Source: a bacterium (GTDB lineage Bacteria; Cyanobacteriota; Sericytochromatia; S15B-MN24; UBA4093). From it: a DNA stretch of 64,000 bases. How positions within the stretch are numbered: position 1 is the stretch's first letter; each line of letters opens with the position of its first letter. A model generated the notes under the pieces. It searched no databases, was not told the DNA's origin, and was given only the letters and a program-made list of their open reading frames with translations. The DNA is taken from contig JAGIBK010000005.1 of assembly GCA_017744355.1 (NCBI GenBank), positions 260,790 through 324,789 on the forward strand, given 5' to 3'. Positions 24,750-51,206 of this stretch are shown here, piece by piece. The translations under genes and the position numbers were made by a program.

Positions 24750-24823
24750 CTGCCATGCGCGATAAACCTATTAAGCAAGTATTAAATCCTTGTCATGAGA
24801 CGATGAAAAGTGAGGTTTTCGAC

Positions 24824-25363
24824 ATGATGCAAGTTCGCTTGGCCCTCGTTGCGATGCTGGCTTTCGGTGCGCTGGCTGGCTGCGGGACCCCCACGGGCTC
24901 GCCGCTGGCGGTAGCCGAGGATGTCGATGCGGAAGCGAATCGCGCCTACACGATCATCGACATGCAGGGCATCGGCCCGGTGTACGCCGCCAAGCTCAAG
25001 GAAGCGGGCCTCAACACCACCGCCAAGTACCTCGATGCGACCAAGAGCCGCAAGGATCGTCAGGTGCTCGCCGACAAGACCGGCATCTCCTACAAGCTGA
25101 TCCTGCGCTGGACTCGCAAGGCGGACCTGATGCGGATCTCGGGCATCGGCGTCAAGCAGGCCGATCTGCTCGAAGCCTGCGGCGTGGCCTCGGTCAAGGA
25201 GCTTGCGCGTCGCAACGCCCGGAACCTGGCCGAGCGCGTCTGGGCGGCCAACAACATCTCGCGTCCCTTCGTCAAGGGCGGCACCCCCACCGAGGCGCGC
25301 ATCGCGGCCTGGATCGAGGCCGCCAAGGTCGTCGTCCAGCAGGTGGACGACGAGCAGCCCTAG
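24824..25363 (+). CDS. DUF4332-domain lipoprotein (HhH-type)
   Basis: RBS AAAGTGAGG; lipobox LAGC; tandem helix-hairpin-helix-like GIGPVYAAKL / ISGIGVKQADLL. Confidence 0.7.
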   Translation: MMQVRLALVAMLAFGALAGCGTPTGSPLAVAEDVDAEANRAYTIIDMQGIGPVYAAKLKEAGLNTTAKYLDATKSRKDRQVLADKTGISYKLILRWTRKADLMRISGIGVKQADLLEACGVASVKELARRNARNLAERVWAANNISRPFVKGGTPTEARIAAWIEAAKVVVQQVDDEQP

Positions 25364-25387
25364 CCTTAAGCGACTCTTCACGAAAGC

Positions 25388-25417
25388 GGCACCCCCGGTC
25401 GGGGGTGCCGTTTTTTT
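25388..25417 (+). terminator. rho-independent terminator
   Basis: GGCACCCCC ggtc GGGGGTGCC followed by TTTTTTT. Confidence 0.8.
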
Positions 25418-25587
25418 GCTGAAAACTTATGTCGTTTGTTTGTCACATGACGTTACGGAATTGTGACGCATGTCGGGACGATGGTCCCAACTCGTAAGGA
25501 GCAAGGGGGGGTATTTTCGCTGTGGGCGCTGGATTCAGCTCCCTCAGTCGAGCCGCCGCGTCGCTTTTTCACGAGTGGAGAGCATGC

Positions 25588-27327
25588 ATGTCAGAACCCA
25601 AGAGCCGCCACCAGGCGGGACGGATTGCAGGTAGGATGGGCGGGCCGGCGCTGGTGGCCCTCGCCTTGACGCTTTCGCTCACCGGCTGCCCCCAGGCCCT
25701 GACCTCCCTGCCCGGTATCACGGGGGGAGCGCCCACTCCGGCCCCCGAGCAGCAGGCCGGCACCGTCACGGTCAAGGTTCCCCCGTTGCAGGCAGCGGTC
25801 CCCCTCACCCTCGCTGCCCCCGCGCTCCAGCAGGCTGCCGGCCTCCAGCAAGCCGCCGGTCTTCAACAAGCCGCCGGCTACCGGGTCCAGGCCGAAGATT
25901 CTTCCTACAGCGAGGCCCCGGTTCCCAACTCGGTGGTGATCGCCCTGTGCACCACGGGCGGCCAGCAGATCGTCGGCACCACCGACTCCCAGGGCCGGGT
26001 CCTCCTCAAGCTCGACCTCAACAAGGTCTACTACATCACCGCCCCCTTCGTGGACGCCCTTGGGGCTTACCGGGAGTTCCGCACCATCGTCAAGGTCGGC
26101 AAGGACCAGCGAGACAACCCGCCTCCCCAGAGCGTCAACTTCGCTTCGACCGTCGTCACGGCCGCCATCACCGCCAAGAGCGGCGGGGACTTCCGGAACC
26201 TCAAGGCGATCGACGTCAAGGAGGTCCAGAAAGCGGTCGAGGCCACCCAGACGATCATCCGGGCCAAGTCCGACCTGCTGGCTTCCGTCCTGCTGGATAC
26301 CAATGCGGGGAACGCGGCGTCGATCGACATGGCCCTCAAGACCATCGCCATGGCCAAGGAGAGCGATCCGGCCCTCGCCGACGTTCCCAGCCCCATGGCG
26401 GCGGTCGAGGAGGCCCACCGGAGCCACGACGAGACCGTGAGCCTCAAGCCCTCCGGCGAGGAGGAGACGGTCACGGTCGCGGTGGGAGCGGGTCAGGATG
26501 CGACCAAGGCGGCCCAGGAGCAACTGGCGGCGGCCACCCCGGCGCCGACCCCGCGCCCGACGCCGACCCCCGCCCCCACCGCGACCCCCACGCCGCCGCC
26601 GATGCCGACCGTCTCGCGCTTCGAGTTCGAGCCGGGGATCCCCACCCAGATCTTCCTGCCGCTCGTGGTCGACGGGCTGCCCGTCGTGGACCCCGCCTAC
26701 CCCGGGGCCGCCCTCATGAAGACCCGGACCGTCCTGTCCGACGACACGGTGATCGCCGCGGCCAAGTGGTCCATCGCCGCAGGGGACCAGGGAGGCAAGA
26801 TCTCGGTCGGCGCCGGCATCCTGCGGATCGACCCGACGGCGGTCCCCGGCTACGTCAACGTCAAGGCCGAGCCCATCCTGCCCTCGGCGCTCTCGGCGAT
26901 CAAGCCGATCCAGCTCCTGGCCACGCCGGAGCGCGTGGCCGCGGTGCGCACCGCGTTGCCGGACGGGGTTGCGGGCCTCACGGTGCCCGCGGACTTCACC
27001 GTGCCGGGCGACAACAACCTGAGCGGCCTCACCTCCGTCAAGCTCAACACTCGCCTGGTCTGGAACGATCGCCGCGAGTCGACGCTCGCAGGTAGCACGC
27101 CCCACCTGAAGTGGAGCACGACGACCCCGAACCTGGTGTCGATCGACGCGGACGGCACGGTCCGAGCGCTGCCCAACAGCGGCGGCGGCACGGCGGTGGT
27201 CACGGTGACGGCCAACTTCCCCGTCCCGCCGACCAATCGCCTGGTCGCCACCCCCTCTGCGACCGTTCAGATCCCCATCGTGCGCAAGTCCGAGACGCCG
27301 ATCGAGATCGTCTTCCCCTCGTTCTAG
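25588..27327 (+). CDS. lipoprotein A1 of duplicated module: LQQAAG repeats, beta-sandwich, PT-linker, two Big_2-like Ig domains
   Basis: MSEPK start after GGAGAG, conserved with paralog; lipobox LTGC; 3x LQQAAG; GTTDSQGRVLLKLDLNKVYYI; TPAPTPRPTPTPAPTATPTPPP linker; WSTTTPNLVSIDADGTVRAL..TAVVTVTA. Paralog of 32965-34635. Confidence 0.8.
   Translation: MSEPKSRHQAGRIAGRMGGPALVALALTLSLTGCPQALTSLPGITGGAPTPAPEQQAGTVTVKVPPLQAAVPLTLAAPALQQAAGLQQAAGLQQAAGYRVQAEDSSYSEAPVPNSVVIALCTTGGQQIVGTTDSQGRVLLKLDLNKVYYITAPFVDALGAYREFRTIVKVGKDQRDNPPPQSVNFASTVVTAAITAKSGGDFRNLKAIDVKEVQKAVEATQTIIRAKSDLLASVLLDTNAGNAASIDMALKTIAMAKESDPALADVPSPMAAVEEAHRSHDETVSLKPSGEEETVTVAVGAGQDATKAAQEQLAAATPAPTPRPTPTPAPTATPTPPPMPTVSRFEFEPGIPTQIFLPLVVDGLPVVDPAYPGAALMKTRTVLSDDTVIAAAKWSIAAGDQGGKISVGAGILRIDPTAVPGYVNVKAEPILPSALSAIKPIQLLATPERVAAVRTALPDGVAGLTVPADFTVPGDNNLSGLTSVKLNTRLVWNDRRESTLAGSTPHLKWSTTTPNLVSIDADGTVRALPNSGGGTAVVTVTANFPVPPTNRLVATPSATVQIPIVRKSETPIEIVFPSF
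25825..25878 (+). repeat. 3 x 18-nt in-frame repeat encoding LQQAAG
   Basis: CTCCAGCAGGCTGCCGGC / CTCCAGCAAGCCGCCGGT / CTTCAACAAGCCGCCGGC. Confidence 0.9.
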
Positions 27328-27344
27328 TGGCAAGGAGACCGCAG

Positions 27345-29054
27345 GTGAGATTGAAGCAATACCTTCGCTGGGAGCTCTTGCTGGCCCTGAGCCTGGTGGG
27401 ATGCACCGCCGCGATTCCCAACCGCCTCGGAGGCGAGGCCGGGGCCCCCGGCGCCGCCGGCACGCGCTTGGCCGAGCCGGTCGCGCAGGGCGGCAGCCTT
27501 TACTTCCAGATCCGCTGGCCCGGCCCGCGCCTGAGCACGCAGGCCGTCCAGTTCAACCCCGACGCCGTCAAGGTCTTCGTCAAGAAGGCCGATGGCACCG
27601 CGATCCAGTCCCAGGTCCTGACCCGGCCCACCGACGGGACCTTCGTGAGGACCGCGAGGTTCACCCTCGACCCGGCCCTGAAGCAGGTCGACGTCTTCGC
27701 CGAGGCCTGGCAGGCGGATAAGCTGCTGGCCAAGGGCAAGCACCTGGCGGTCCCGGTGCGCGACAACACCTCGACCCCGGTGGCGATCGCCCTGGATCTG
27801 GTCGACCAGAACGGCAACCAGACGGGCCTCGACCTGCGCCTGGCCCCCGAGCTGGCGATGCTCCACAGCCTCCCCGAGCTGGCCGCGCGCTACTCCAACC
27901 TCAGGACGTACGGCACCTCGCCCGAGTTCCTGGAGATCAAGGCCGCCCTCGACGCGACCATCGCCCGATTGTTCGGGGATCGCCGCGACGAGCGCGCCCC
28001 TTCCCCGTCGCCCACCGTGGCCGCTGCCCCGTACCGGGTGCAGAGCCTCGAGAACCCGAGCTTCCGGCTCATCGACGCCCCGTTCCAGGCCGTCGATCTC
28101 GTGGACGGCGTCCCGAGCGTCCTGTACTGGCCCGGCTTCCAGGGGGCTTATTCCTTCAGCGGCGGCAGCACCGGCCTGCACACCCTGGACCTCGCCGTGA
28201 CCCCGGCCGGGCAGGACTTGACCACGGCCAACCTTCACGGGGAGCTGGATGCCGATGCCTGGGTGAGCGAGCCGAACCTGATGCCGATCGCGAAGGGCTA
28301 CGAGCCGGGTGCCACCGAGGTGAGCACGCGCTCGGTCGCCTTGCTCGGCGGCATGCGCCCCGACTTCAAGACCCTGCGGCAAGGCAAGCTGCACTTGGAC
28401 GTGGCTCCCGGCGGGATGGCCGCCCGGGGCGCGGCGCTGGATCTGGCCCTGGACCAGGTCCGCGACGTCTCGAGCACCGCCTTCTACCAGTTCCTCCAAT
28501 CCAAGGTCCAGTCGTCGCTGCCGACCGCCAACTGGCCGTCGCACGCGGCACTCGTCGCCCAAACGCCCACCCTCGCGGCCACGGCCGACATCAAGGCCGC
28601 CGACGACTTCCTGGGCGGCCAGCTGAAGTCGATCTGGCGCCTCTTGGACAAGGATGGCAAGCCGGGCCACTACGACCTGGCTCTTGGCGTCCAGGAGCGC
28701 CTGGGCACGGTGAACGGTAAGCCCGAGATCGCCGGAGCGGACGTGGCCTTCGCCCTGGACGACGTGGCGCTCGGCTTGCGCCTGAAGGGCCTCGCCCACG
28801 TGGAGACCTCTCCGCCGAAGGTGACCATCCAGGCCTCGTTCGTCGACATCGCCTCCAACCTGGTCCTGGGAACCCTCAACTACGAGGTGCCCATCGACTC
28901 CCTGGGCCGCGTGGACTTCAGCCGTCTGGCCTCCTGGCCAGTGCTGACGGTCGCCGACCCGACCAAGCCGGATGCCCCGAAGACGTCCTACCGCCTGACG
29001 CCGGGCTTCTTCTCCGGCGACGTGGACGGCACGATTCAGGTCGAGGTGCGATAG
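27345..29054 (+). CDS. lipoprotein A2 of duplicated module
   Basis: GTG start 8 nt after AGGAG; lipobox LVGC; N-terminal FQIRWPGPRLSTQAVQF domain; C-terminus YRLTPGFFSGDVDGTIQVEVR matches paralog 34651-36468. Confidence 0.75.
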   Translation: MRLKQYLRWELLLALSLVGCTAAIPNRLGGEAGAPGAAGTRLAEPVAQGGSLYFQIRWPGPRLSTQAVQFNPDAVKVFVKKADGTAIQSQVLTRPTDGTFVRTARFTLDPALKQVDVFAEAWQADKLLAKGKHLAVPVRDNTSTPVAIALDLVDQNGNQTGLDLRLAPELAMLHSLPELAARYSNLRTYGTSPEFLEIKAALDATIARLFGDRRDERAPSPSPTVAAAPYRVQSLENPSFRLIDAPFQAVDLVDGVPSVLYWPGFQGAYSFSGGSTGLHTLDLAVTPAGQDLTTANLHGELDADAWVSEPNLMPIAKGYEPGATEVSTRSVALLGGMRPDFKTLRQGKLHLDVAPGGMAARGAALDLALDQVRDVSSTAFYQFLQSKVQSSLPTANWPSHAALVAQTPTLAATADIKAADDFLGGQLKSIWRLLDKDGKPGHYDLALGVQERLGTVNGKPEIAGADVAFALDDVALGLRLKGLAHVETSPPKVTIQASFVDIASNLVLGTLNYEVPIDSLGRVDFSRLASWPVLTVADPTKPDAPKTSYRLTPGFFSGDVDGTIQVEVR

Positions 29055-30557
29055 GTGAGAGCCATGAAGCAAACGCAACTGCATACGCTGGCCATCCTGG
29101 CCCTTTCGGTGGCGATCGCGGGGTGCGCGACGCCTACCCTCCTCGGGGGCCGCGGGGCTCCCAGCCGGGTCGATGCGGCCCAGCCGGCCGCGACGGGCGG
29201 CACCGTGGAGCTCCACCTCCACTGGCCCGACAAGCAGGTCGGGTACGGCGCCCAGGCCATCCCCAACCGGGCGACTCACGCGGTGGTGACCCTGACGGAG
29301 GCTTCGGGCTCGGTCCACACGGCCGAGCTGGCCCGTCCTACCGCCCCGGCGCCAGAGCCCACCCCCAACAAGGACGGGATGACCTCGCAGGGCATGGAGG
29401 GAGGTCCACCCGCCCCCATGGGCGGCGCCTCCTGGCGCCTTGCCCAGCAAGAGGGCGTCACCCTCAAGGCCGAGCTGTTCGACCAGGAAGGCCGTAGCGT
29501 CGGGTCGGCCACCCGGACGGTGGACGTGATCGCGGGCTACCATTCGGTCGTTGCGCTGGACATCCTGGTCGAGGGGGCCCCGAAGCTCGAGGTCGTGAAC
29601 CCGACCGCCTTCAAGATCGGGGATCGGATCGTCCTGGAGGGCCGGAACTTCGGTCTGTCCCACCCCGACTGGTCGCCCGCCGGGGTCTACCTGGAGAGCG
29701 AAGGGACCTACGCCTGGGGCTCGGCCTTCGGGCCCGAGACCCATCAGTACCGGAACATGGTCTACCTGCCGCCTTCCAGCGTGAAGGTCGTCTCGGACTC
29801 GCGAATCGAGGTGACGATCCCGTCCAGCATGGAGAACGGCTGGCACTTCGTGGATGCCCTCTGGAACTACTTCCACGCGAACGGCAACCAGCAGCTCTAC
29901 CTGGGGGTCACGGTGGACGGCGTCAACTCGAACCGGGTGCCGGTCTCCATCCCCCGGGGGACCTCCGCGGGGGTCACCGTGACCGTCGAGCAGGGCCGCG
30001 AGGCCCCGTCGCGCGAGGCGGCGACGGCCTCGGTCGATCTGACGGCGGCCCCGTTCGGGATCCCGGCGGCGAGCGGCTCCAAGTGGGTCTTCGAGGTCGC
30101 CGGGACCGACGGGGACCGCGCCGGCGGCACCCAGACGATGAGCGTCCAGCTGCTGAACGACGACGGAGAAGCCCTCGTCTCGTCCAACGCTCAGGGGGCT
30201 CCGACCAGCGGCTGGCGCACCAACCTGCGCTGGGACTGGCAGTGGGGCTTCATGCGGAGCCTCTCGGCGCCCGCGGCCCTGGGCATTCAGGTTCTCCCCG
30301 ACGAGCAGGTCCCCATGCCGGGCGGCGGCACGGCGATCGCTCGGCACCTCTTCTACACCGCGCAGGGCGGGCCTGACGCCACCTCGGTGCGGGATCTCTG
30401 GGTCGTGCCGGGGGTCGGTCCCGTCCGCATCCGCGAGGTGACCCTCCACGCGAACCAGGATCCCGGAAGCGAGGGCAAGGGGATGGCGCGCCAGACGCGC
30501 GAATACCGTCTGGTCGCCTTCGAGCCGCCCGCCGGCCCCGCGCCGGTGCGTCAATAG
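29055..30557 (+). CDS. lipoprotein A3 of duplicated module (N-domain + IPT-like domain)
   Basis: GTG abuts the upstream stop (TAGGTGA); ATG 29064 is also possible. Lipobox IAGC; HLHWPDKQVGYGAQAIP; VIAGYHSVVALDILV; IPT-like LEVVNPTAFKIGDRIVLEGRNF. Paralog of 36469-37989. Confidence 0.75.
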   Translation: MRAMKQTQLHTLAILALSVAIAGCATPTLLGGRGAPSRVDAAQPAATGGTVELHLHWPDKQVGYGAQAIPNRATHAVVTLTEASGSVHTAELARPTAPAPEPTPNKDGMTSQGMEGGPPAPMGGASWRLAQQEGVTLKAELFDQEGRSVGSATRTVDVIAGYHSVVALDILVEGAPKLEVVNPTAFKIGDRIVLEGRNFGLSHPDWSPAGVYLESEGTYAWGSAFGPETHQYRNMVYLPPSSVKVVSDSRIEVTIPSSMENGWHFVDALWNYFHANGNQQLYLGVTVDGVNSNRVPVSIPRGTSAGVTVTVEQGREAPSREAATASVDLTAAPFGIPAASGSKWVFEVAGTDGDRAGGTQTMSVQLLNDDGEALVSSNAQGAPTSGWRTNLRWDWQWGFMRSLSAPAALGIQVLPDEQVPMPGGGTAIARHLFYTAQGGPDATSVRDLWVVPGVGPVRIREVTLHANQDPGSEGKGMARQTREYRLVAFEPPAGPAPVRQ

Positions 30558-30571
30558 GGAGAGTGAGGCCC

Positions 30572-32116
30572 ATGCTCATGAAGAATCGTTCCCCCTTCGT
30601 CGCAGTGCTCGCGCTTTCCCTGGCGACCGTGAGCGGCTGCGCGGCCTTGCCCGGAAACCTCTTGGCCGCAAGGCCCGAGGCCGCGACGACGGCCCAAGCG
30701 CTGAGCAGCCTGAAGCTGCTCGTCGACTCGGGCGCCTATCGGGCCCAGGCCGTGGACCTGTCGGCGATCGCCATCCACGTGCGGCTGGAGTTCCCGTACC
30801 AGTCCGACGCCTCCCCCCGGACCCTCGACGTTCAGAGCGGGGTGCCCGCGGTGTTCGGGGATCTGGCCCCGGGGCATGCCCTGCTCACCGTGTCGGCCCA
30901 GAACGTGGTGACAAACCAGCTCATCGACACCCAGTCGCGCTGGGTGGACCTGCTGCCCGGCGTCCAGGCGGCGGCCCAGTTCGCCTTGACCGTCGGCGGC
31001 TCCACGGCGGCCGACGTCGGGGTCACCTTCGGCGCGAACACCCGGGATTACCGGACGTTCGACCAGCCCGACGGCCTCGACCCCGACTTCAGGGCGGCAC
31101 TCGGCAACGGCCAGTTCATGCCCGGGCGCCGGGTGCTGCCGTTCCAGCTGGAGACGCCCGAGGGCACGAGCTACTTGACCTTCACCACGGACGCGGACCA
31201 CCTGGAGCGCCAGATCGCTCACCAGCCGTCGGTGAGCTACCCTTCCAACGCCTGGTATCAGCTGCCCGGGCATGCCGTGCGGGTCGACTCCGAGCCCCTC
31301 CTGGGGCAGACGAAGGTTCGCCACTTCCGCTGGTCGAACGAGTACGAGGCGAACGACGAGCGTCGCCTCTACACCTTCGATCGGTGGGTGACCCCCTTGG
31401 AAGGGACGATCAAGGAGACCGTCAGCGAGAACGGTGTCGTCCGCTCGACCCTGAGCCGGACCCCTGTCCGGCTCGCCGGGATGCTTCTCAGGGGATCGGA
31501 TCCCCTGACCATGCCCTTCCCGCTCGGCCTCAAGCGCTGGGACGGTGAGGCCTTCGTGCCGGCTGAGGCAGGCACGGCGCGGGACGAGAAGGGGAACACC
31601 CTCTTCTTCGGGGTCACGCCAGGCCGCTATCAGGTCGTCTATGACGCGTCGACGGGGTTCATGGATCCCTCGCTCGCGGCGCGCGTCGTCTCGGCGCCCG
31701 TCCAGGTAAGCGACATGGGCCAGGCGTCGTTCGGCCTCGACGTGGGCTGGGAGCTCAGGCCCTCGATCGGTCCAACTGCGAAGCGCGAGTTCGTGCCCGG
31801 CTTCGACGCCTTCGCCTTCGCTCCGAAGAGCGGCGCGCCCGACGCCGAATACCAGGTGGTGGTCGCGTCGGCTTCCTACACGGAAGGTCGGCCAACTTAC
31901 CAGCCGGTCTGGAGCTCCGCCTGGGGGCCTGCCGGCAGCGTGGCCTGGAACGGGAAGGCGGGTGAGGAGGTCAGCGATCCGGTCGGTGTCGACGCGCCGA
32001 CGGGCGACTACGCCTATCACGTGAGGTTCCGCAAACAGGGGACCGCCTTCGGGGGCGAGGGTTCCTACGGCCAGAGCCACTGGCAGTCCTTCCGCCTCAT
32101 GCGCGCGCCGCTTTAA
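30572..32116 (+). CDS. lipoprotein A4 of duplicated module
   Basis: RBS GGGAGAG; lipobox VSGC; FDRWVTPLEGTIKE block shared with paralog 38008-38955; carries about 190 extra C-terminal residues. Confidence 0.7.
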   Translation: MLMKNRSPFVAVLALSLATVSGCAALPGNLLAARPEAATTAQALSSLKLLVDSGAYRAQAVDLSAIAIHVRLEFPYQSDASPRTLDVQSGVPAVFGDLAPGHALLTVSAQNVVTNQLIDTQSRWVDLLPGVQAAAQFALTVGGSTAADVGVTFGANTRDYRTFDQPDGLDPDFRAALGNGQFMPGRRVLPFQLETPEGTSYLTFTTDADHLERQIAHQPSVSYPSNAWYQLPGHAVRVDSEPLLGQTKVRHFRWSNEYEANDERRLYTFDRWVTPLEGTIKETVSENGVVRSTLSRTPVRLAGMLLRGSDPLTMPFPLGLKRWDGEAFVPAEAGTARDEKGNTLFFGVTPGRYQVVYDASTGFMDPSLAARVVSAPVQVSDMGQASFGLDVGWELRPSIGPTAKREFVPGFDAFAFAPKSGAPDAEYQVVVASASYTEGRPTYQPVWSSAWGPAGSVAWNGKAGEEVSDPVGVDAPTGDYAYHVRFRKQGTAFGGEGSYGQSHWQSFRLMRAPL

Positions 32117-32127
32117 AGGAGAAGCCC

Positions 32128-32775
32128 ATGAAACCTTCGAAGCTCTTCGTCTTTGCAGGGGCGCTCTTGCTTGCGATCGCGGGCTGCGCCTCGCTTCCCC
32201 CGACTTCCCAGGCTCCGCTCGGGCCGAGCAACTCAAGTGAAGCCCCGGCGCTGACCCTCAAGCTCGACCTGGGACGTCGGGTCCAGGCGGTGGCGCGCGA
32301 CGTGGCAGGAGCGCGGGTCAGCCTCTCGGTCGCAGGCCGGGTGTTCGAGACCCAGGCCACCCTGTCGGTCGTTCCGCTCGCTTCCCCTTCGCCCGGTGGC
32401 CCTACGCCATCGCCGAGCCAGGCCCCGCTCGAAAACGTGATCGAGCTGTCGAAGGCGACGGGGATGGCGCTGGTCGCAGGGGATGCCAGGGTCCACGTCG
32501 AGGCCATCGACCAGGAGGGGCGGGTGATCGGGAGCGGCGACGCGGTGGCGCCGCTCCTGATCGGGCGCCGTAGCTACGTCCAGGTCCTGGTGAAGCTGGA
32601 CAGCACCGGCCGGACGGAATATATGCCCTTCACGCCCCTGGGACCGCAGCCGAGCCCATCGCCTGAGCCCACCTGGTTCCCTTCGGCCGAGCCGCTCCCG
32701 TCCCCGACCGGGAGCCCTTCGTTCGAGCCGACGCCGGAGCCTACCAGGAGCCCCTCGCCCGAGCCGACGCCATAA
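32128..32775 (+). CDS. lipoprotein A5 of duplicated module with a Pro/Ser/Thr/Glu-rich tail
   Basis: RBS AAGGAG; lipobox IAGC; LTLKLDLGRRVQAV N-domain; C-terminal PSPSPEPTWFPSAEPLPSPTGSPSFEPTPEPT. Paralog of 38958-39518. Confidence 0.75.
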   Translation: MKPSKLFVFAGALLLAIAGCASLPPTSQAPLGPSNSSEAPALTLKLDLGRRVQAVARDVAGARVSLSVAGRVFETQATLSVVPLASPSPGGPTPSPSQAPLENVIELSKATGMALVAGDARVHVEAIDQEGRVIGSGDAVAPLLIGRRSYVQVLVKLDSTGRTEYMPFTPLGPQPSPSPEPTWFPSAEPLPSPTGSPSFEPTPEPTRSPSPEPTP

Positions 32776-32806
32776 AACCACCCCCCTGGGCGTGATGTCC
32801 ACGGCC

Positions 32807-32846
32807 GCAAAGACGCCCCCCAAGCGGGGGGCGTCTTTGCTTTGGG
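32807..32846 (+). terminator. rho-independent terminator separating the two module copies
   Basis: GCAAAGACGCCCCCC aag CGGGGGGCGTCTTTGC followed by TTTGGG. Confidence 0.8.
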
Positions 32847-32964
32847 ATAGAGTGACGGCGGGGCGTTCTTGTAATAAAAGCGACATAACCCGGGTAATTT
32901 CATGATGGCCCTTGCTTGTTTCGATCACATCGATTGAGCGGTGTCCATGCCGTGGAGAGCCTAC

Positions 32965-34635
32965 ATGTCCGAACCGAAGAACCTGCCCCCCACACGCACA
33001 AGCGCCCGTCGGGCCGTTGTGCTCGGCGCGCTGAGCTTGTCGCTTGCCGGCTGTCCTATGGGGGCGGGCTGGGACGATAAGCCCGGCATCACGCAGACTC
33101 CGCCGCCGACGGGCAACAACCTCGTGACCGTGGCGCCCCTCGCGACGGTTGCGCCCATCCGCGTGACCGCGCCCTCGTTGCAGCAGGCGGCGGGCCTCCA
33201 GCAGGCCGCAGGGCTGCAACAGGCAGCAGGCTTGCAGCAGGCCGCGGGATTGCAACAGGCGGCAGGGCTTCAGCAGGCCGTGGGATACCGGACCCAGGCC
33301 GGCTACGGCATCCAGGCCGACGAGAACTTTTACGCCGAGGTGCCGGTGGCAGGCGCCGAGGTCATCGCCTATCCCGCGGCAGGCGGCGATCCGGTTATCG
33401 GGAGTACGGACGAGCAGGGCTTCGTCCGCCTCAAGCTGGACGTCAACAAGGTCTACACCATCGTCGCCAAGTTCAAGGACGCCACGGGTCAGGACAAGCA
33501 GTTCAAGGCCATCACCAAGGTCGAAAAGGACCAGGTGGACAAGCCCGAGGAGCAGAAGTCCCAGCTCAAGCTGGACCTGGCCTCGACCCTGGTCGCCGAG
33601 ACGGTGGCCAAGGCTCAGGGCGACAACCTCAAGACCGTCGACGTCGCCAAGGTCGCCGAGGCGGTCGCGGCGACCAAGACCGTGCTGGCGGCCAGGCCCG
33701 AGGCCCTCGTCTCGGTCCTGCTCAACACCGACACCACCAAGTTCGAGCAGGTGCAGCAGGCGCTCAAGCAGATCTCGTTCGTCCAGCAGACGACCGATGC
33801 GCTCAAGGGCCTGCGCGACGCGGCCGATGCGCTCTCTGCGGCGCAGACCAGCTTCGACCCCACGGTCAACACCCGCAAGGGCGGCGAGCAAGAGCCCGCG
33901 GCGCCCACGGCGACCCCCACCCCGACGCCGCCCTCGAGCTTCAACCAGGTCCCGGTCAAGGCCCCGACGGCCGTCAAGGTCTTCGAGCCGGCACCGAACT
34001 TCCCGACCAAGGTCTACATCCCCTTCAAGGTCGCAGGCGAAGACGTCAGCGACCCCATCGCCTTCCCGACCGCGCTGCTGCTCAAGGCGAACGCCAAGCT
34101 CACGGACGACACCGCCTTCGAGCCGACCTGGTCGCTCGTCCAAGAGAAGGCGGGCGTCAGGATCGTGGGCAGCCTGCTCGTCGTCTCCTCGGGCGCGAGG
34201 CCCGGCGAGATCACCCTGAAGGCGACGCACGGCGACCGTACCTTCCAGGTCGGCCCCATCAGCGTTCTGAGCACCCCCGTGCGGGTCAAGAAGATCTCGC
34301 TCACGGTGCCGCAACCGCTGAAGCTGGTCGTGCCGCCCGAAGGGCCCCTGCCCCCGGGCGCGACGCTCATCGGCGCCTCGACCGCATCACTTGGCCTCAG
34401 CCTCGAGATGAACAACAAGACGACCTCTACCGACTTCGGCTTGGTGGCTTGGTACGCCTCGCCTTCCGCCCACGTGCGGGTCGATGCGGCCAATCGCCAG
34501 CTGCGCGTCTTGTCGGGCGCGCCGGTCGGTCTGTACGAGATCTTCGGGCTCGCCTCCACGGACAGCGCCACGGTGTCGACCAAGGTTCAGATCGATGTCG
34601 AGCGCAAGAGCCAGATCGGCGCCGAGATTCAGTAG
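32965..34635 (+). CDS. lipoprotein B1 of duplicated module: 6x LQQA(A/V)G repeats, Big_2-like domains
   Basis: MSEPK start after GGAGAG; lipobox LAGC; repeat array; WSLVQEKAGVRIVGSLLVVS and WYASPSAHVRVDAANRQLRVL Ig-like blocks. Confidence 0.8.
   Translation: MSEPKNLPPTRTSARRAVVLGALSLSLAGCPMGAGWDDKPGITQTPPPTGNNLVTVAPLATVAPIRVTAPSLQQAAGLQQAAGLQQAAGLQQAAGLQQAAGLQQAVGYRTQAGYGIQADENFYAEVPVAGAEVIAYPAAGGDPVIGSTDEQGFVRLKLDVNKVYTIVAKFKDATGQDKQFKAITKVEKDQVDKPEEQKSQLKLDLASTLVAETVAKAQGDNLKTVDVAKVAEAVAATKTVLAARPEALVSVLLNTDTTKFEQVQQALKQISFVQQTTDALKGLRDAADALSAAQTSFDPTVNTRKGGEQEPAAPTATPTPTPPSSFNQVPVKAPTAVKVFEPAPNFPTKVYIPFKVAGEDVSDPIAFPTALLLKANAKLTDDTAFEPTWSLVQEKAGVRIVGSLLVVSSGARPGEITLKATHGDRTFQVGPISVLSTPVRVKKISLTVPQPLKLVVPPEGPLPPGATLIGASTASLGLSLEMNNKTTSTDFGLVAWYASPSAHVRVDAANRQLRVLSGAPVGLYEIFGLASTDSATVSTKVQIDVERKSQIGAEIQ
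33178..33285 (+). repeat. 6 x 18-nt in-frame repeat encoding LQQAAG (last unit LQQAVG)
   Basis: TTGCAGCAGGCGGCGGGC, CTCCAGCAGGCCGCAGGG, CTGCAACAGGCAGCAGGC, TTGCAGCAGGCCGCGGGA, TTGCAACAGGCGGCAGGG, CTTCAGCAGGCCGTGGGA. Confidence 0.9.
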
Positions 34636-34650
34636 CGGAGGAAAGAAGAC

Positions 34651-36468
34651 GTGAGAACGAAGCGAATCCTTCGCTGGGAGATCCTGCTCGCCCTGGGCCT
34701 GGTCGGTTGTACGGCGGTCGCGCCGAGCCGCATCGGGCCTCCATCCACTTCGACAGCCCAAGGGCCCGAAGCGTCGGCGATCGCGCCCGCCCACCACACA
34801 AGCAGCCTGATCCTTCGCATCCGCTGGCCCGAGCGGCAGGGTCTCGCGACCCAGGCCATCCCGAACGCCACCGAGAAGATCGTGGTGACCATCCTGGGCC
34901 CGAACGGCGCCAAGGTCCACGAGAAGACGGCACAGCGCCCGGCTGCCGGTCAGTTGAACACCCCCACCACCCTCACCTTCGATCTGGATCCGGCGCTCGG
35001 CTCGGTCACGCTCGAGGCGGTCGCCTACGGCCCGGGCAACACGCGCCTGGCCGAAGGCCGCCAGGCGAATATCCGCCTGCTGGACAACGTGGCGCTCGGG
35101 GTGTCGATCACGCTGACGGACACCGGCGCGCTCCAGGTCGTGTACGCGAACCAGCTGGCGCTGGTCAAGAACCTGGAAGGCTACATGGAGCGCTTCCACG
35201 ACTTCGCCAACTACGAGCGGACGTCGGAAGGCGAGGCCATCAAGGGCGCCTTCGATCGCGTGTTGGGCCGGAGGACCCTCGGCGATCTGCTGCGGCCGTA
35301 TTCCCCCCCGCCCGAGGATGAGGGTGGCTTCCCGATGCCGTCCGAGGGGGTGCCCCCCGCAGGCCCGGAAAGGCTCTGGGAGGTCGGCGTGGAGCCCGAG
35401 TTCGAAGGCTCCTGGGGGGTCGATCTCCTGGGTCGATCGCTCCTGGCGCTCTACTGGCAGGGCTATACCAGCCCGGATGCCTGGGCGAACTTCAAGGGGG
35501 ACTGGCAGCTGAGCAGGCCCGACCCTCAGCGCTGGCAGCTTGACGTGAACGGGGCGCCCGATTCCTTCGGTGGGCAGTATTCCGACCAGAGCACCTTCGC
35601 CTTGCGCGCCAGGATGGACGCCGGCCAGTGGACGGATACGCCTTGGGGCACGCGCTTCCTTCGCGGTAGCAATGATGGCCCCTTCGTCACGCGGATCATC
35701 GATCTGTTCGGGCCGAAGACACCCGTCTTCGGGACCATGGGCGCCTTCAGCCTCGACTTCGACCTGACACCCAATGGGGATGCGGCCCGCGCTTATTCCT
35801 ACCGCTTCGAGGCGGATTCTTTCAGGAGCAGCGCCTCGGTCCCGGTTGCCCTCAACACGGAGCTCGGCGGTCCGGTGGATCTGCTGTGGGACTTGCTGCG
35901 CGACCCCATCTTCTCGCGCCTGACCGACCTCAGCACCCACCTGCCTGCGCTGCCGGGGCGGGTCTCGATCGTCAGCCACTACCCGTCACTGCAGTCGACC
36001 ATGTCGATGGCGGTTCGCTCGGCATCCACGATCGACCTCAACGTGGCGGCGCGCCTGAAGGACAATGCCGGTGCACGGGTGACCTTCCCCGTCGCCATGA
36101 GCTTTTCGCCGACCTACGCCTTCGAGCAAGGCAAGCGCAAGCTCGCCACCAACAAGGTGCACTTCGAGGTCGCGGATTCCCAGCAGCAGCTGAAGCTGGT
36201 GGGTGATTTCGAGCAAGGGCCGACCGTCATGACCCTGCACGCCCAGATCGTGGACACCTCGGGACGCCAGACGAACACGCTATTGGCGACCCTCGACCAC
36301 ACCTGGAACAAGCACCCGAATGGTGGCTTCGACTTCAGCCGCATCGCGGATTTCCCGCTCCTCGTGGTGAACGACGATCCCGATGAGTCGAAACGGACGC
36401 GCTATCGCTTGACGCCCGGCTTCTTCAACGGCGACAAGCTGGGCCACGTGAGCGTGGAGGTACGGTAG
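34651..36468 (+). CDS. lipoprotein B2 of duplicated module
   Basis: GTG start after GGAGGAAAG; lipobox LVGC; LILRIRWPERQGLATQAIP; C-terminus RYRLTPGFFNGDKLGHVSVEVR. Confidence 0.75.
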   Translation: MRTKRILRWEILLALGLVGCTAVAPSRIGPPSTSTAQGPEASAIAPAHHTSSLILRIRWPERQGLATQAIPNATEKIVVTILGPNGAKVHEKTAQRPAAGQLNTPTTLTFDLDPALGSVTLEAVAYGPGNTRLAEGRQANIRLLDNVALGVSITLTDTGALQVVYANQLALVKNLEGYMERFHDFANYERTSEGEAIKGAFDRVLGRRTLGDLLRPYSPPPEDEGGFPMPSEGVPPAGPERLWEVGVEPEFEGSWGVDLLGRSLLALYWQGYTSPDAWANFKGDWQLSRPDPQRWQLDVNGAPDSFGGQYSDQSTFALRARMDAGQWTDTPWGTRFLRGSNDGPFVTRIIDLFGPKTPVFGTMGAFSLDFDLTPNGDAARAYSYRFEADSFRSSASVPVALNTELGGPVDLLWDLLRDPIFSRLTDLSTHLPALPGRVSIVSHYPSLQSTMSMAVRSASTIDLNVAARLKDNAGARVTFPVAMSFSPTYAFEQGKRKLATNKVHFEVADSQQQLKLVGDFEQGPTVMTLHAQIVDTSGRQTNTLLATLDHTWNKHPNGGFDFSRIADFPLLVVNDDPDESKRTRYRLTPGFFNGDKLGHVSVEVR

Positions 36469-37989
36469 GTGATCAAGATGAGTACGCGCTCCTGGGCTTC
36501 GGCGATCGCGATCGCCACCACCCTCGCGATCGCCGCCTGCGCGATGCCGCCTTCCCTGAACGGCGGCGCGGGCAACCGGTCTGCGGCCGAGCAGGCCATC
36601 AAGCATGAGATGGGGAAGCTTGCGATCAGCGTCGCCTGGCCCCGCAAGACCCAGGCGATCCCCTTCCGCGCCACCAAGATGGTCATTCGCCTGACCAAGG
36701 CGGGCAGCGCCGCCTCGCCCGAGCACGAGCTGCCGGTCATGGATGCGAGCGATGCCGCCTTCCCGGACGTCGTCATCGACCGGGGCGATAACCCGCTGAC
36801 CAGCTACGGGCCGACGACTTACGAGTGGGACATCCCACAGCAGGCGGATGTCCGCCTGTCGGCGATCCTCTACGAAGATGACGCGGTGATCGGCTCCGAT
36901 GCGCGCGTTATCGACGTGATCGCCGGCGTGCACTCCCACGTGGGGCTCAACATCGTGCTCAACGCGGCGAACGCATCCCACCTGACGAGCATCTCCAGCG
37001 ACTCGCTCGGGGTCGGCGACGTGATCACCCTGACGGGCTCGAACTTCGCGAAGGACCGGGAAGCCTGGAGCAAGCAGGTCTTTTTCCAGATCGAGAGCGA
37101 CTGGCGGATGGGCGGTTCTCCCCATCCGTCGCCCAGCGGCGGCCCCATGGTCGAGGTTGAGCGCGTTTACTTCCCTGCCAATCGGGTCGAGGTGGTGAGC
37201 GACTCCGAGATCCGGGTGACCATCCCCGCCACCTTCCCTTACTATCCGGGGCAATCCTCGGAGTCGGGCATTCCGCTGCTCTCGAGGCTCTGGAGCTACT
37301 TCCGGGATCCCAGCGCGGCCCGTCTCTTCATCGGGGTCGATGTGGACGGCGCCGCCACCGAGCTGAAGCCCGTCACGTTCAAGCCGGGCGCGCTGGCCGC
37401 AGACGTGACACTCACCGCGGACGCGGTGGCCCCCGCCAAGGCGAGCGGGCGCAATGGCCCCCTCTGGGTGGATGACCACTACATGGATCCCGCCGTGGAG
37501 TCGGGAAGCTACTGGACCTATCGCGTGCAGGGGCCTTCGTACTGGCAGCAGCGAGAGGTGACGGTTCGCATCTCGAACCCTGGCGGATCCTGGGAGGGCG
37601 GCGCGGAGATCCTTGAGGGCCCCCAGGTGGCGCAGGTCGCGGATCTGGCCAATCACCCGGAGTTCGACTTCATGTGCTTCCTGAACCCGCAGACCCGGGT
37701 TTATCAGCAGGGCTTCGGCCCTGACAACGACACGGTCACCTACACCTACACGGTGCCTCACTTCACGCGCGGCGGTCAGAAGTACCCGAGACCCGGCGCG
37801 ATTCGCGAGGTCACGATCCGGCGCAACGTCGGCGTCGTGTACATGCGCGAAACCTACCTCGCACGGTTCGGGGATCGGATCGAACGGGAAGTGAGGGAAT
37901 ACGGGCTGATGAACTCGCCCGTGGCGCCCTCGGCAGGGACCGTCTGGCCCACCCCGTGGCCCTCGATGACGCCCGTCCCCGGGGTCTAG
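36469..37989 (+). CDS. lipoprotein B3 of duplicated module
   Basis: GTG abuts the upstream stop (TAGGTGA); signal peptide with atypical IAACA lipobox; ISVAWPRKTQAIP; VIAGVHSHVGLNIVL; IPT-like LTSISSDSLGVGDVITLTGSNF. Confidence 0.7.
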   Translation: MIKMSTRSWASAIAIATTLAIAACAMPPSLNGGAGNRSAAEQAIKHEMGKLAISVAWPRKTQAIPFRATKMVIRLTKAGSAASPEHELPVMDASDAAFPDVVIDRGDNPLTSYGPTTYEWDIPQQADVRLSAILYEDDAVIGSDARVIDVIAGVHSHVGLNIVLNAANASHLTSISSDSLGVGDVITLTGSNFAKDREAWSKQVFFQIESDWRMGGSPHPSPSGGPMVEVERVYFPANRVEVVSDSEIRVTIPATFPYYPGQSSESGIPLLSRLWSYFRDPSAARLFIGVDVDGAATELKPVTFKPGALAADVTLTADAVAPAKASGRNGPLWVDDHYMDPAVESGSYWTYRVQGPSYWQQREVTVRISNPGGSWEGGAEILEGPQVAQVADLANHPEFDFMCFLNPQTRVYQQGFGPDNDTVTYTYTVPHFTRGGQKYPRPGAIREVTIRRNVGVVYMRETYLARFGDRIEREVREYGLMNSPVAPSAGTVWPTPWPSMTPVPGV

Positions 37990-38007
37990 TCGCGAGGGGA
38001 GGAACGA

Positions 38008-38955
38008 ATGATGATGAGGTCCAAGATGCGCCTGCGCCACCTGCTACTCGCCGCCCTCTCGGTTTCCTTGGTCGGATGCCAGGGGCTTTCCGGTGTGCTC
38101 TCCCCGAGCACTGGCGGCGGCATGAGTGCGGTGCAGGCACAGACCGGCGGCCTGACGGTCCGACTCGGCAACGCGGCGCTCGCCTACAAGGCGCAGCAAC
38201 TGACGGACTTCCCGTTGGAAGAGGTGGAGGTCCTGGTGACGGTGGAGAGCCCGGACGCGCAGGATCCCGCCGTGCGTCGCCAAGAACGAACGGTCAGGCT
38301 CGGCCAGGTGATCGAGTTCGCCCAGGTTCCTGCCGGGTACGTGGACGTGACGGCCATCGCCTTATACAAGGGGCAGGTCTTCGACCGGCAATACACCAGT
38401 GCGGCGATCATGCCCGGTGGCTCGGAGACCGTCACGCTCGAACTGAATGTGGGCGCGAGCGCGCTGGATCTCGACTTCGGGTCCGCGCTGCCCGTTCGCC
38501 GTATGGACGTTCGCGACCTGCCGGAGTTCGCGGCCTACCAGCTGCCTTCGGGCGCCGAGAGCATCGACTTCGATCTGGTGGATGCCAGCGGAGCGACCGA
38601 ATCGATTTCGTTCCGCCATGCCGACGGCTGGCTCTATCGCAAGCTCGGCCTTGAGCCCTGGCCCGAGGCGAGTGAGTGGTGGCGCTTCTCGTTCGGCTGG
38701 GGCGCCCTCACGACCCTGCCCGCGCATGCGACCATCGTCGGGGCGGAGGCGCCCTGGAACGGCTGGGCCGGAACGGTGAAGCGCTTCCAGTGGGAGAACG
38801 TCTACGTCACCAATCGCAACGGGAGCACGCAGGACGTCACCTATCGCTTCGACCGCTGGTACTCGCCCACCGAGGGCCTGCTGCGCGAGGACGTCCACGA
38901 GGCGAGCGGCTCGCAGCCTATCCTGGTGACCCGCATGATCCGGAAGGGGCTTTGA
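38008..38955 (+). CDS. lipoprotein B4 of duplicated module (short form)
   Basis: RBS GGGGAGG; lipobox LVGC; FDRWYSPTEGLLRE block. Confidence 0.7.
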   Translation: MMMRSKMRLRHLLLAALSVSLVGCQGLSGVLSPSTGGGMSAVQAQTGGLTVRLGNAALAYKAQQLTDFPLEEVEVLVTVESPDAQDPAVRRQERTVRLGQVIEFAQVPAGYVDVTAIALYKGQVFDRQYTSAAIMPGGSETVTLELNVGASALDLDFGSALPVRRMDVRDLPEFAAYQLPSGAESIDFDLVDASGATESISFRHADGWLYRKLGLEPWPEASEWWRFSFGWGALTTLPAHATIVGAEAPWNGWAGTVKRFQWENVYVTNRNGSTQDVTYRFDRWYSPTEGLLREDVHEASGSQPILVTRMIRKGL

Positions 38956-38957
38956 GC

Positions 38958-39518
38958 ATGAGCGTCACGAACAAGACTTTCGCCCTCCTGGGCGCCTGCG
39001 GCGCCGTGGCCGCGCTCTTGATAGCGGGGTGCGCGTCGTTCCCCGCGGCGGGGGCCGGTACCCCCGCGGGCCAGATCGCCGAGGCCCCGAAGGCCTCGCT
39101 CTCGCTGCGCGTGCGTCTGCCGAGGACGGTCCAGGTGGTGAGGAGCGAGATCACCGGCGCGACGATCAGCGTCACGATCGACGGCGAGGCGCCGATCCAG
39201 GTGCCTGTCGCCCTGTCATCCAGCGACGGCAACGTACGCCTGCCTGTGCCGGATAGGGACCTGGGGGAAGCCGAGGCGTTCTCGCTCGAGGATCTACCCC
39301 AGGGGGATGCGGTCGTGAGGCTGGACCTCTACCGAGGAACCGAGATCGTCGGCACCGGGGAGGCCCTGGTGCCGCTCATCCGGGGATACCGCTCGGCCGC
39401 TTTCATTCAGATTTACCTGGACAGCCGCGGCAAGACCGATATGAAGCCCCTGGCACCCTTGCCGGGCGCCACCGTCAGGCCCGAGAACCCGCCGTCGGAT
39501 CTCTACCCGCCTGCTTAG
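38958..39518 (+). CDS. lipoprotein B5 of duplicated module
   Basis: Lipobox IAGC; LSLRVRLPRTVQVV N-domain; LIRGYRSAAFIQIYLDSRGKTD block. Confidence 0.7.
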   Translation: MSVTNKTFALLGACGAVAALLIAGCASFPAAGAGTPAGQIAEAPKASLSLRVRLPRTVQVVRSEITGATISVTIDGEAPIQVPVALSSSDGNVRLPVPDRDLGEAEAFSLEDLPQGDAVVRLDLYRGTEIVGTGEALVPLIRGYRSAAFIQIYLDSRGKTDMKPLAPLPGATVRPENPPSDLYPPA

Positions 39519-39524: not shown

Positions 39525-39552
39525 GCCGCCCCGCTCCGAAGAGCGGGGCGGC
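39525..39552. terminator. perfect 12-bp stem hairpin between convergent genes
   Basis: GCCGCCCCGCTC cgaa GAGCGGGGCGGC. Confidence 0.55.
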
Positions 39553-39557: not shown

Positions 39558-41045
39558 TCATGCGACCCACTCGTTGCGATCGCCGTCCGAGGCGTTGCGC
39601 TTGGGTTTGGTCCCGCGCAGGACGGCGTGGATGTCGGGCTCGTAGAGCACTTCGTGGTCCAAGAGCCCCTGAGCGAGTCGCTCCAGGTCCTCGCGCCGCT
39701 CGATGAGCACCTCGCGGGCTTGCTCGTAGGCCTCGCGCAAGACCTGCTCGACGGCCAGATCCAGCCGCTCGCGGGTGGCCTCGGAGCAGGTCAGCTCCTT
39801 GTAGTTGATGGGGGATCCCCCGAGCATCCCCAGCTCCCAGACCAGGAGCTCGGCGATCTTGGTGGCGCGCTTGAGGTCCGAGTGGGCGCCGCTCGTCACC
39901 TCACCGAAGACCATCTCTTCGGCGACGCGGCCGCCCATGAGGACGGCGAGCTCCGAGCAGTACTCTTCGCGGGTGATCAGGTGCCGGTCCTCGCGCTCCA
40001 CCGACCAGGTGTAGCCCAGGGCGTGGCGGCCGGTGGGGATGATTGAGGCCTTGTGCAGGCGCTTGTGCGGCTGGGTGCGCAGGCTGACCACCGCATGGCC
40101 CGCCTCGTGGTAAGCGACCACCCGGCGCTCGTGAGGATTGAGCGGGTGCGAGGCGTTCTCGAGCCCGATCCCCAGGCGCTCCATGGCCTTCGAGAAGTCC
40201 TCGTGGCGTACCTGCGAGCGTCGCTCGCGCACCGCGAGGATCGAGGCCTCGTTGACCACCGAAGCCAGATCCGCCCCGCTCATGTTGGTGGCGGCCCGCG
40301 CCAGCGCCCGCAAATCCACGCTGCGGTCGAGCTGCACCTTGCGGGAGTAGTGGGCCAGGAGCGCCTCGCGCCCCTTGAGGTCGGGCAGTCCCACGTGGAT
40401 CTTGCGGTCGAAGCGTCCGGGCCTGAGAAGGGCCGTATCGAGCGACTCCTCGTAGTTGGTCGCCCCGATGGTGATCACGTTGCTGTCGCGGCCGAAACCG
40501 TCCAGCTCGACCAGGAACTGGTTGAGGGTGTTGTTGCCCTCTTGGCCGCCGAACTGGTTGCTGCTGCGCGAGCGCCCCAACGCGTCGATCTCGTCGATGA
40601 ACACGATGGCCGCAGGGTGCTTGCGGGCCTTCTTGTAGAGGGAGCGGATCCGGCTTGCGCCCACCCCCACGAAGACCTCGACGAAGTCCGCACCCGAAAG
40701 AGAGTAGAATGGGACTCCGGCCTCGTTGGCGATGGCCTTGGCCAGAAGGGTCTTGCCGGTACCGGGCGGCCCGACCAGGAGGATCCCCTTGGGAATCTTG
40801 GCGCCGATCCGCTCGAAGGTCTGGGCGTTCTTGAGGAAGTCGACGACCTCCTGGGCCTCGCGCTTGGCTTCGTCGATGCCGAGCACGTCCTTGAAGCGCA
40901 CGTCATTGTTGGTCTCGCGGCTTGGGTCGAATTTGGCGCGGTTGAACATCCCCCCCATCACCCGCGCGTACACCAGGCAGAAGACCACGGCGTAGAGCAC
41001 GATCATGACGAAGGTGAGGGCGAGTTGGATGAGGATTTCGAGCAT
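39558..41045 (-). CDS. FtsH-family AAA+ zinc metalloprotease, minimal N-terminus (single TM, no periplasmic domain)
   Basis: Walker A GPPGTGKT, Walker B IVFIDEID, SRH, zinc site HEAGHA; start ATG 41045 after GGAGGTG; only one N-terminal hydrophobic helix precedes the AAA module. Confidence 0.85.
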   Translation of the reverse strand: MLEILIQLALTFVMIVLYAVVFCLVYARVMGGMFNRAKFDPSRETNNDVRFKDVLGIDEAKREAQEVVDFLKNAQTFERIGAKIPKGILLVGPPGTGKTLLAKAIANEAGVPFYSLSGADFVEVFVGVGASRIRSLYKKARKHPAAIVFIDEIDALGRSRSSNQFGGQEGNNTLNQFLVELDGFGRDSNVITIGATNYEESLDTALLRPGRFDRKIHVGLPDLKGREALLAHYSRKVQLDRSVDLRALARAATNMSGADLASVVNEASILAVRERRSQVRHEDFSKAMERLGIGLENASHPLNPHERRVVAYHEAGHAVVSLRTQPHKRLHKASIIPTGRHALGYTWSVEREDRHLITREEYCSELAVLMGGRVAEEMVFGEVTSGAHSDLKRATKIAELLVWELGMLGGSPINYKELTCSEATRERLDLAVEQVLREAYEQAREVLIERREDLERLAQGLLDHEVLYEPDIHAVLRGTKPKRNASDGDRNEWVA

Positions 41046-51186: not shown

Positions 51187-51206
51187 GGACCATGAAGGGA
51201 ACGATC

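Follow-up and report, generated by a model that had tools for sequence, protein, structure and literature searches.

In the type V pili of Bacteroidia (Fim and Mfa), a lipidated pro-region is removed at a conserved Arg or Lys and a C-terminal strand provides for donor-strand exchange (PMC8512630). GspP (DR_1364), a TIG-domain lipoprotein, forms a belt around the secretin of Deinococcus radiodurans (PDB 8CO1; PMC10828601). Here we analyse two adjacent five-gene lipoprotein operons, A and B, in a 64,000-nucleotide (nt) stretch of DNA, hereafter the window, from contig JAGIBK010000005.1 of a member of the Sericytochromatia (assembly GCA_017744355.1). This class is the little-studied, non-photosynthetic sister of the oxygenic cyanobacteria, and to our knowledge almost nothing is known of its cell envelope. 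Judged by layout, the five-gene module would work most like the surface assemblies that Bacteroidota build from lipoproteins, namely type V pili, SusE/F and sets of surface glycan-binding proteins (SGBP), a likeness of analogy and not of homology. Our favoured interpretation, to which we give an even chance, is that the five products of a module come together in a single envelope complex held by lipid anchors. This complex would probably be exposed at the surface and subject to diversifying selection, and would serve in binding, in adhesion or as a coat.

Gene calling and all-vs-all BLASTP of the encoded proteins arrange ten genes of the + strand in two sets of five, operon A at 25588-32775 and operon B at 32965-39518, exactly the coordinates given in an earlier model-made reading of the letters alone (the sequence-only reading). 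Each gene is preceded by a Shine-Dalgarno-like motif. Gaps inside the operons measure 2-18 nt with the start choices of this analysis, 189 nt separate A from B, and the G+C content of the window is ~67%. A2 is identical to NCBI protein J7643_14290. The genes are listed with product lengths in amino acids (aa) and the position of the predicted lipidated cysteine.

25588..27327, + strand: A1, predicted 579-aa lipoprotein, Cys34
27345..29054, + strand: A2, predicted 569-aa lipoprotein, Cys20
29064..30557, + strand: A3, predicted 497-aa lipoprotein, Cys21
30572..32116, + strand: A4, predicted 514-aa lipoprotein, Cys23
32128..32775, + strand: A5, predicted 215-aa lipoprotein, Cys20
32965..34635, + strand: B1, predicted 556-aa lipoprotein, Cys30, paralogue of A1
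34651..36468, + strand: B2, predicted 605-aa lipoprotein, Cys20, paralogue of A2
36478..37989, + strand: B3, predicted 503-aa lipoprotein, Cys21, paralogue of A3
38008..38955, + strand: B4, predicted 315-aa lipoprotein, Cys24, paralogue of the conserved ~300-aa core of A4
38958..39518, + strand: B5, predicted 186-aa lipoprotein, Cys25, paralogue of A5

The two operons are paralogous position by position, as the sequence-only reading had proposed (28-34% identity, E-values (E) from 1e-57 to 3e-10), and the BLASTP alignments span whole proteins, so that the similarity is not confined to low-complexity linkers. A1 and B1 share 34% identity over their full length (E 1e-57), A2 and B2 29% (E 2e-51), A3 and B3 29% (E 2e-32), and A5 and B5 32% (E 4e-15); the 28% identity of A4 and B4 (E 3e-10) covers the N-terminal ~300 aa only, A4 having ~200 aa extra. 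The motifs quoted earlier, MSEPK, LQQAAG, IRWP, YRLTPGFF..VEVR, VIAG.HS, FDRW..P.EG and LDS.G.T, are present, with one correction: where B2 has QAIP, A2 reads QAVQ. All ten products had also been credited with a signal peptide ending in a lipobox cysteine. PROSITE PS51257 requires a positively charged n-region, then a hydrophobic stretch (h-region) and the pattern [LVI][ASTVI][GAS]C, whose Cys must fall at position 15-35; eight of the ten pass the strict rule, and A2 and B2, both carrying LVGC, miss it solely through a Glu at -10 (9-residue h-region). A lipobox is found at all five positions in the window and in the related loci L002, L006, L008, L009, L010, L013 and L015, and the ten products are accordingly classed as predicted lipoproteins.

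Related loci come from Sericytochromatia metagenome-assembled genomes (MAGs) or unlabelled metagenome contigs. Every such contig of sufficient length carries the five genes in the same order, the kind of synteny that the sequence-only reading had suggested looking for, and the order is kept with a spacing of 0-52 nt in the seven loci just named. The closest relative, L006, was deposited as a third-party annotation (TPA) MAG of 'Pantanalinema sp.', and L008 belongs to Ca. Sericytochromatia LC003. L002 and L017, from the ENA and JGI metagenomes, hold the module in a different genomic context, and the more distant L010 module includes an extra sixth lipoprotein. L009, like L006, is a TPA MAG and is named 'Stenomitos sp.'; both names belong to filamentous cyanobacteria, the locus and its synteny are common to a Ca. 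Sericytochromatia MAG, and the two genus labels may be wrong.

Neighbour-joining (NJ) trees were built separately for each of the five gene positions. Window A groups with L006, L002, L008 and L009 in an A-type clade, and window B, the B module of L006 and L013 form a B-type clade of their own in all five trees, which lies outside the A-type in four of them and is less clearly placed at position 5. Two further module types are represented by L015 and L010. Because the five trees are broadly congruent, the duplications are old, copied whole modules and were followed by evolution of the modules as units; on these trees a recent amplification was rejected and the old duplication claimed before is upheld. 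The L008 and L015 modules lie ~100 kb apart on one LC003 contig (JAKFBU010000004.1), so several modules per genome seem normal, and the tandem A/B pair, seen in this light, is one variant within a multi-copy module family and not a special event. The second of these LC003 modules (L015, 8426-15146) encodes proteins of 518, 570, 482, 294 and 356 aa and adjoins fliI-/fliH-like genes on the opposite strand.

The module diverges much faster than the DNA around it. Between the window and L006, the neighbouring DnaG, HD, SDF and FtsH products are 91-93% identical, against 80, 79, 69, 71 and 65% for A1 to A5 and 80, 35 and 50% for B1, B4 and B5. Locus L013 repeats the B-then-FtsH synteny of the window; there the FtsH fragment is 90% identical and B1 70%, with only 34-46% for B2-B5. 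Taking L006 and L013 together, B2-B5 reach 34-50% identity where FtsH reaches 90-91%. Towards L008 and L009, neighbours stand at 76-86% and module A at 31-43%. With identities so far below those of its neighbours, the module ranks among the fastest-evolving parts of the region, and B2-B5 are evidently hypervariable between close relatives. This limits the earlier statement that both copies have been kept, which is true only in part: B2-B5 vary as described, and in L006 the B-type operon is reduced to four genes by a B2-B3 fusion. The fusion lies at L006 17250-18308, where B2 residues 1-164 are joined in frame to B3 residues ~306-480 (~175 aa) in a 352-aa open reading frame (ORF), and a 340-aa version of the same ORF was called on an independent Logan contig, L007. 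Diversifying selection on a surface complex would account for the retention of several divergent types of the module in genomes. Fast evolution, restriction to one class and the lack of a characterised match together suggest that the module probably builds a cell-surface structure.

Comparison of the subunits with one another adds a feature that the sequence-only reading had overlooked. With signal peptides removed, hhalign identifies a homologous ~100-aa N-terminal β-sandwich domain (N-domain) at positions 2, 3, 5 and, more weakly, 4, with probabilities of 96% for 2/3 (E 4e-9), 86% for both 2/5 and 3/5, and 78% for 4/5; its signature is G.h.h.hRWP.R..[YF]..Q.IP. By this sequence homology, subunits 2-5 share a single lipoprotein ancestor. 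Another ~90 or so lipoprotein clusters, counted by representatives, match solely the N-domain. Among 80 N-domain proteins examined, a lipobox is present in 71, and the domain is followed by TIG (25), Big_2 (11), NHL or Kelch propellers and others; the TIG, Big_2 and NHL/Kelch partners are of types typical of extracytoplasmic or surface proteins. Members with a source name derive from Sericytochromatia-type MAGs. Given the ~90 clusters, the frequency of the lipobox and these named sources, the N-domain is a class-specific lipoprotein head domain, and it is previously undescribed. We considered whether members of its family share a 'sorting signal' of the form h.h.h[polar] at the C-terminus, and discarded this because the pattern is mostly the last strand of a Big_2-like Ig domain.

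The window holds a third lipoprotein cluster, likewise overlooked before, of three proteins at 47722-52744 (+). The first (47722-51186; 1154 aa) has a lipobox, three TIG stretches by Pfam and an NHL propeller; the second (51183-51770) has 195 aa; and the third (51767-52744) has 325 aa and the N-terminus ATLQVGLQWPRRETQVIP. This N-terminus matches the hidden Markov model (HMM) of the module N-domain at E 1.9e-19 and was outside the HMM training set.

A single N-domain at the head of subunits 2-5 also makes them resemble serial duplicates, which, with its presence on about 90 unrelated lipoproteins, would suit a module of five independent, co-transcribed paralogous lipoproteins, whether adhesins or variable antigens, that form no defined complex. 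The fast divergence, the possibility of a B2/B3 fusion and the gain or loss of a C-domain in gene 5 also favour this explanation, which we nevertheless regard as rather unlikely. Modules with no more than 22-35% identity still have the same genes in the same order, and this invariance, together with tight spacing, co-inheritance and congruent trees, argues for one assembly. Furthermore, genes 1 and 2 show strong conservation at their extreme C-termini, which suggests contacts with partners.

The subunits differ in architecture. In A1, an LQQAAG repeat is followed by a β-sandwich, a helical segment, a Pro/Thr linker, two β domains and the C-terminal strand R.S....h.h, the last of which is conserved across module types. 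The repeats in the window are the following.

25825..25878, + strand: LQQAAG repeat of A1, 18 nt x 3, units differing at synonymous sites only
33178..33285, + strand: LQQAAG repeat of B1, 18 nt x 6, last unit LQQAVG, other differences synonymous

Since the nine units of A1 and B1 differ almost only synonymously, it is the peptide that is under selection, and recent slippage does not account for the repeat. Relatives carry 1-6 units, L010 having LKSVSA x 2 instead, and in A- and B-type modules the repeat runs into G[YF]R[VI]Q or a close variant. CarboxypepD_reg (PF13620) is detected in four of the ten gene-1 family members (best E 7.8e-6); A1 and B1 are themselves unmatched but align with those members. 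The Big_2-like C-termini ascribed to gene 1 by the sequence-only reading found no backing in Pfam, with no match to Big_2 (PF02368) at E<=0.1 among the ten family members; the motif W..s.P.lvsvd.dGtv.al..G.a.vtvtA is visible by eye only. A further proposal, in which gene 1 would have the N-domain of genes 2-5 with its loop expanded by the repeat, was abandoned (hhalign probability of the gene-1 N-proximal domain against that N-domain <1%), and the best match of the gene-1 profile among PDB sequences, to FlgA at E 0.036, was treated as chance.

The AlphaFold model of A2 comprises the β-sandwich of the N-domain at aa 50-155, a helical hairpin at 161-210 and an all-β domain of ~310 aa (240-550) with a predicted local distance difference test (pLDDT) score of 85-90. 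This last domain consists of long meander strands whose hydrophobic/polar alternation is conserved among homologues, and in the model its amphipathic sheet resembles the wall of a β-barrel. Subunit 2 might then be a lipidated outer-membrane β-barrel channel with subunits 1, 3, 4 and 5 as accessory lipoproteins, an uptake or secretion gate loosely comparable to SusC plus SusD/E/F or to an usher. We consider such a gate improbable. The candidate barrel differs from outer-membrane barrels such as TonB-dependent receptors, FapF, ushers and LptD in that it starts as a lipoprotein and lacks Foldseek support, the A2 model giving no match in the PDB at E<=1e-3. A search for the β-signal of outer-membrane proteins (OMPs) with its C-terminal aromatic residue found none in A2 and B2, which end in ...VEVR with hydrophobic residues at -1, -3 and -5; only the distant homologues P0033 and P0035 end in Tyr. 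The gene 2 C-terminal peptide, TPG[FY]F.G...G.h.h.h[RKYQ], is invariant and is left unplaced in the A2 monomer model (pLDDT 26-47). At the other end of the protein, the gene-2 signal peptide (window 27345-27404), MR.K.Y[LF]RWE[LI][LV]LAL[SG]LVGC, is near-invariant in A- and B-type proteins, although their overall identity is only 26-38%; such conservation is unusual for a signal peptide, and the peptide is absent from the most distant homologue, L010.

A3 is made up of the N-domain (45-155), an IPT/TIG domain (~174-295) and a LolA-like C-domain (321-487). The TIG domain recalls GspP, but GspP has just one domain in its 155 aa and docks on a secretin, the module has no secretin or type II/IV gene nearby, and the sequence-level match is not significant (E 0.24). 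The LolA-like domain, for its part, departs from LolA, LolB, RseB and LprG in having no Pfam or NCBIfam match and in sitting behind two Ig-like domains in a multi-copy, hypervariable protein that does not look like a housekeeping one. The LolA-like cups and the amphipathic sheet of subunit 2 could conceivably belong to a complex, periplasmic or intermembrane, for lipid or lipoprotein handling, one that shuttles hydrophobic cargo from membrane to membrane in the manner of Lol, LprG or Lpt, the explanation to which we attach the least weight. Housekeeping transport would be expected to be conserved, single-copy and widespread, whereas the module is hypervariable, multi-copy and limited to one class; in addition to the missing Pfam LolA-family match, A5 and B5 have lost the cup domain.

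A4 combines the N-domain with an FDRW..P..G domain and a C-terminal extension of ~200 aa. The extension (31530-32116, residues ~320-514) occurs in the window and L006 only, being absent from B4, L008, L009 and L010, and gene 4 of L002 has a Pro/Ser-rich tail in its place. An equivalence between the C-domains of genes 3 and 4, suggested by a W.xP..G.h[KR] motif seen by eye in both, was rejected since the hhalign comparison is not significant. A5 consists of the N-domain and a Pro/Ser-rich tail, and its orthologues in L008, L009, L010 and L015 have an additional C-domain, which in L010 is homologous to that of gene 3 (independent E-value 1.5e-7) and which A5 and B5 of the window lack. Pro/Thr/Ser-rich linkers and tails recur in A1, A3, A5 and gene 4 of L002, and the C-termini of genes 3-5 are variable. 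The TIG, LolA-like, barrel and CarboxypepD_reg assignments hold at the level of the fold or in relatives only.

The conserved C-terminal strands also bear on the comparison with type V pili. A fibre of that kind would be built from lipoprotein precursors that reach the outer membrane, with a protease cutting a conserved basic loop behind the first β-strand of the N-domain. The cut would free the lipid anchor and open a groove for the C-terminal strand of another subunit. Five-gene clusters that encode lipoprecursors throughout, in several paralogous copies per genome, are like fim and mfa (PMC8512630), and of 48 N-domains, 38 have an R or K in the low-pLDDT loop that follows strand 1, about 35-42 residues past the Cys, which may be compared with the cleaved R46 of FimA and R49 of Mfa1. 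The gene 1 and gene 2 strands are kept in all module types, that of gene 2 being the one without a place in the monomer model. On this scheme, the lipidated N-terminal strand would be removed at the conserved RWP.R...Q.IP loop, which LQQAAG units expand in subunit 1, and the groove left empty would take up the invariant C-terminal strand of subunit 1 or 2. Subunit 2 would serve as the anchor embedded in the membrane, and subunits 3-5 would be variable tip or accessory proteins. We nonetheless find a fibre of this kind distinctly unlikely. The ten A/B proteins give no match at E<=1 to Pfam P_gingi_FimA, Mfa-like or Mfa2, and no sequence relationship to Fim or Mfa is apparent; the module differs in its domains (barrel-wall-like, TIG, LolA-like), in architectures unlike two-domain pilins, and in phylum. 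The β-sandwich similarity is generic, ExsB scoring equally; the position of the basic residue is not fixed, genes 3-5 lack conserved C-termini, and there is no linked candidate protease. Moreover, type V pili are known solely from Bacteroidia (PMC8512630). An independently evolved, protease-matured strand-exchange surface fibre outside the Bacteroidota, argued by analogy, is thus a long shot; if it were true, the principle of the type V pilus would have arisen independently a second time.

A lipid-anchored complex is the arrangement we prefer. In each module, the five products would be exported, lipidated at the lipobox Cys and held at the membrane by the lipid. Subunits 2-5 would each present a lipid anchor, a linker of ~25 residues, the common N-domain and then differing distal domains: barrel-wall-like in subunit 2, TIG plus a LolA-like half-barrel in subunit 3, and smaller β domains in subunits 4 and 5. 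The complex would most likely be displayed at the cell surface, where it would contact or bind something external. Congruent trees, tight gene spacing and an invariant order, the conserved terminal strands of genes 1 and 2, the Pro/Thr/Ser-rich linkers, the surface-type partners of the N-domain, the SGBP-like layout and the hypervariability jointly point to co-assembly, to a place at the surface and to a role in binding or as a coat. SusE/F and SGBP-B of the polysaccharide utilisation loci of Bacteroidota offer a comparable layout, a stalk with a distal domain, but the profile match among PDB sequences is not significant (E 0.21). No SusC/SusD pair, glycoside hydrolase or regulator adjoins the modules, and no carbohydrate-binding module was detected. 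The flanks hold genes for an SDF symporter, SLT, M23, DUF4332, an FtsH-like protein and a histidine kinase, and neither SusD nor a TonB-dependent receptor is among them.

Several observations weigh against a surface complex of five subunits. Conserved operon order also fits co-regulated, independent proteins, and the LolA-like and barrel-wall-like folds could mean a periplasmic or intramembrane lipid-handling role. The B2-B3 fusion of L006 shows that the B-type does not strictly need all five genes. Two of the 80 scanned N-domain proteins carry a CCP_MauG di-haem peroxidase domain; such peroxidases are periplasmic enzymes, and these fusions make the N-domain in itself no proof of surface exposure. 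Finally, the AlphaFold models are of moderate confidence, with a mean pLDDT of 71.5 for A2 and 68.7 for a second model, and were built on alignments of 11-13 sequences.

Searches of wider collections agree with the earlier impression that no subunit belongs to a characterised family. Pfam and NCBIfam scans of all ten A/B proteins returned nothing above threshold, and the families of genes 1, 2, 3 and 4, searched as profiles, had no significant match among PDB sequences. The family is very rare: a word-indexed search of 5.8 billion proteins yielded 10 matches for A2 and 12 for A3, a full HMMER profile search recovered 19 proteins at E<=1e-10 among 1.84 billion representatives, and a scan of 241 million JGI metagenome records added one locus. 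Across these collections, the module family is restricted to Sericytochromatia, and literature searches on Sericytochromatia envelope or lipoprotein systems returned nothing relevant. The module is uncharacterised and far from known systems, its novelty being a lack of matches and not a demonstrated new mechanism. As a class-restricted, multi-copy, fast-evolving unit with an undescribed N-domain that heads ~90 other clusters, it probably marks out a major structure of the surface or envelope that is specific to the class, and it is a solid lead into Sericytochromatia envelope biology. If the subunits co-assemble, they would represent a new type of lipoprotein-based envelope complex.

The operons are delimited by the elements listed below.

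25382-25415 (with tract 25382..25422), + strand: hairpin and U7, -28.8 kcal/mol, z -5.2, terminator of the upstream DUF4332 gene
32807..32840, + strand: 15-base-pair G+C-rich hairpin followed by UUUGCUUUG (interrupted U tract), -39 kcal/mol, z -6.7, terminator between A and B
39525..39552, strand not assigned: G+C-rich hairpin between B5 and the convergent FtsH-like gene, -31.8 kcal/mol, z -4.5
39558-41225, - strand: FtsH-like gene, convergent with B5

The first hairpin terminates the DUF4332 gene and thereby sets operon A apart as its own unit. The second is the terminator that the sequence-only reading had placed between the copies, with the qualification that its U tract is interrupted. Operons A and B each form a predicted separate transcription unit. 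Directly 5′ of module A, at 22307-25363 (+), lie four genes, whose products are a membrane protein, a lytic transglycosylase (SLT), a peptidase of the M23 type and a lipoprotein with DUF4332/HhH. L006, L008 and L009 share this arrangement, which L002 and L015 lack. A functional tie of SLT, M23 and DUF4332 to the module was rejected as unproven, the whole DnaG-HD-SDF neighbourhood being equally syntenic in L006, L008 and L009.

Elsewhere in the window are two large ORFs without a Pfam match. The one at 8066-10666 (+) encodes an 866-aa Gly/Ala-rich protein, and the other, at 19580-20941 (-), encodes a protein of 453 aa with a signal-like N-terminus and a β-rich, OMP-like composition.

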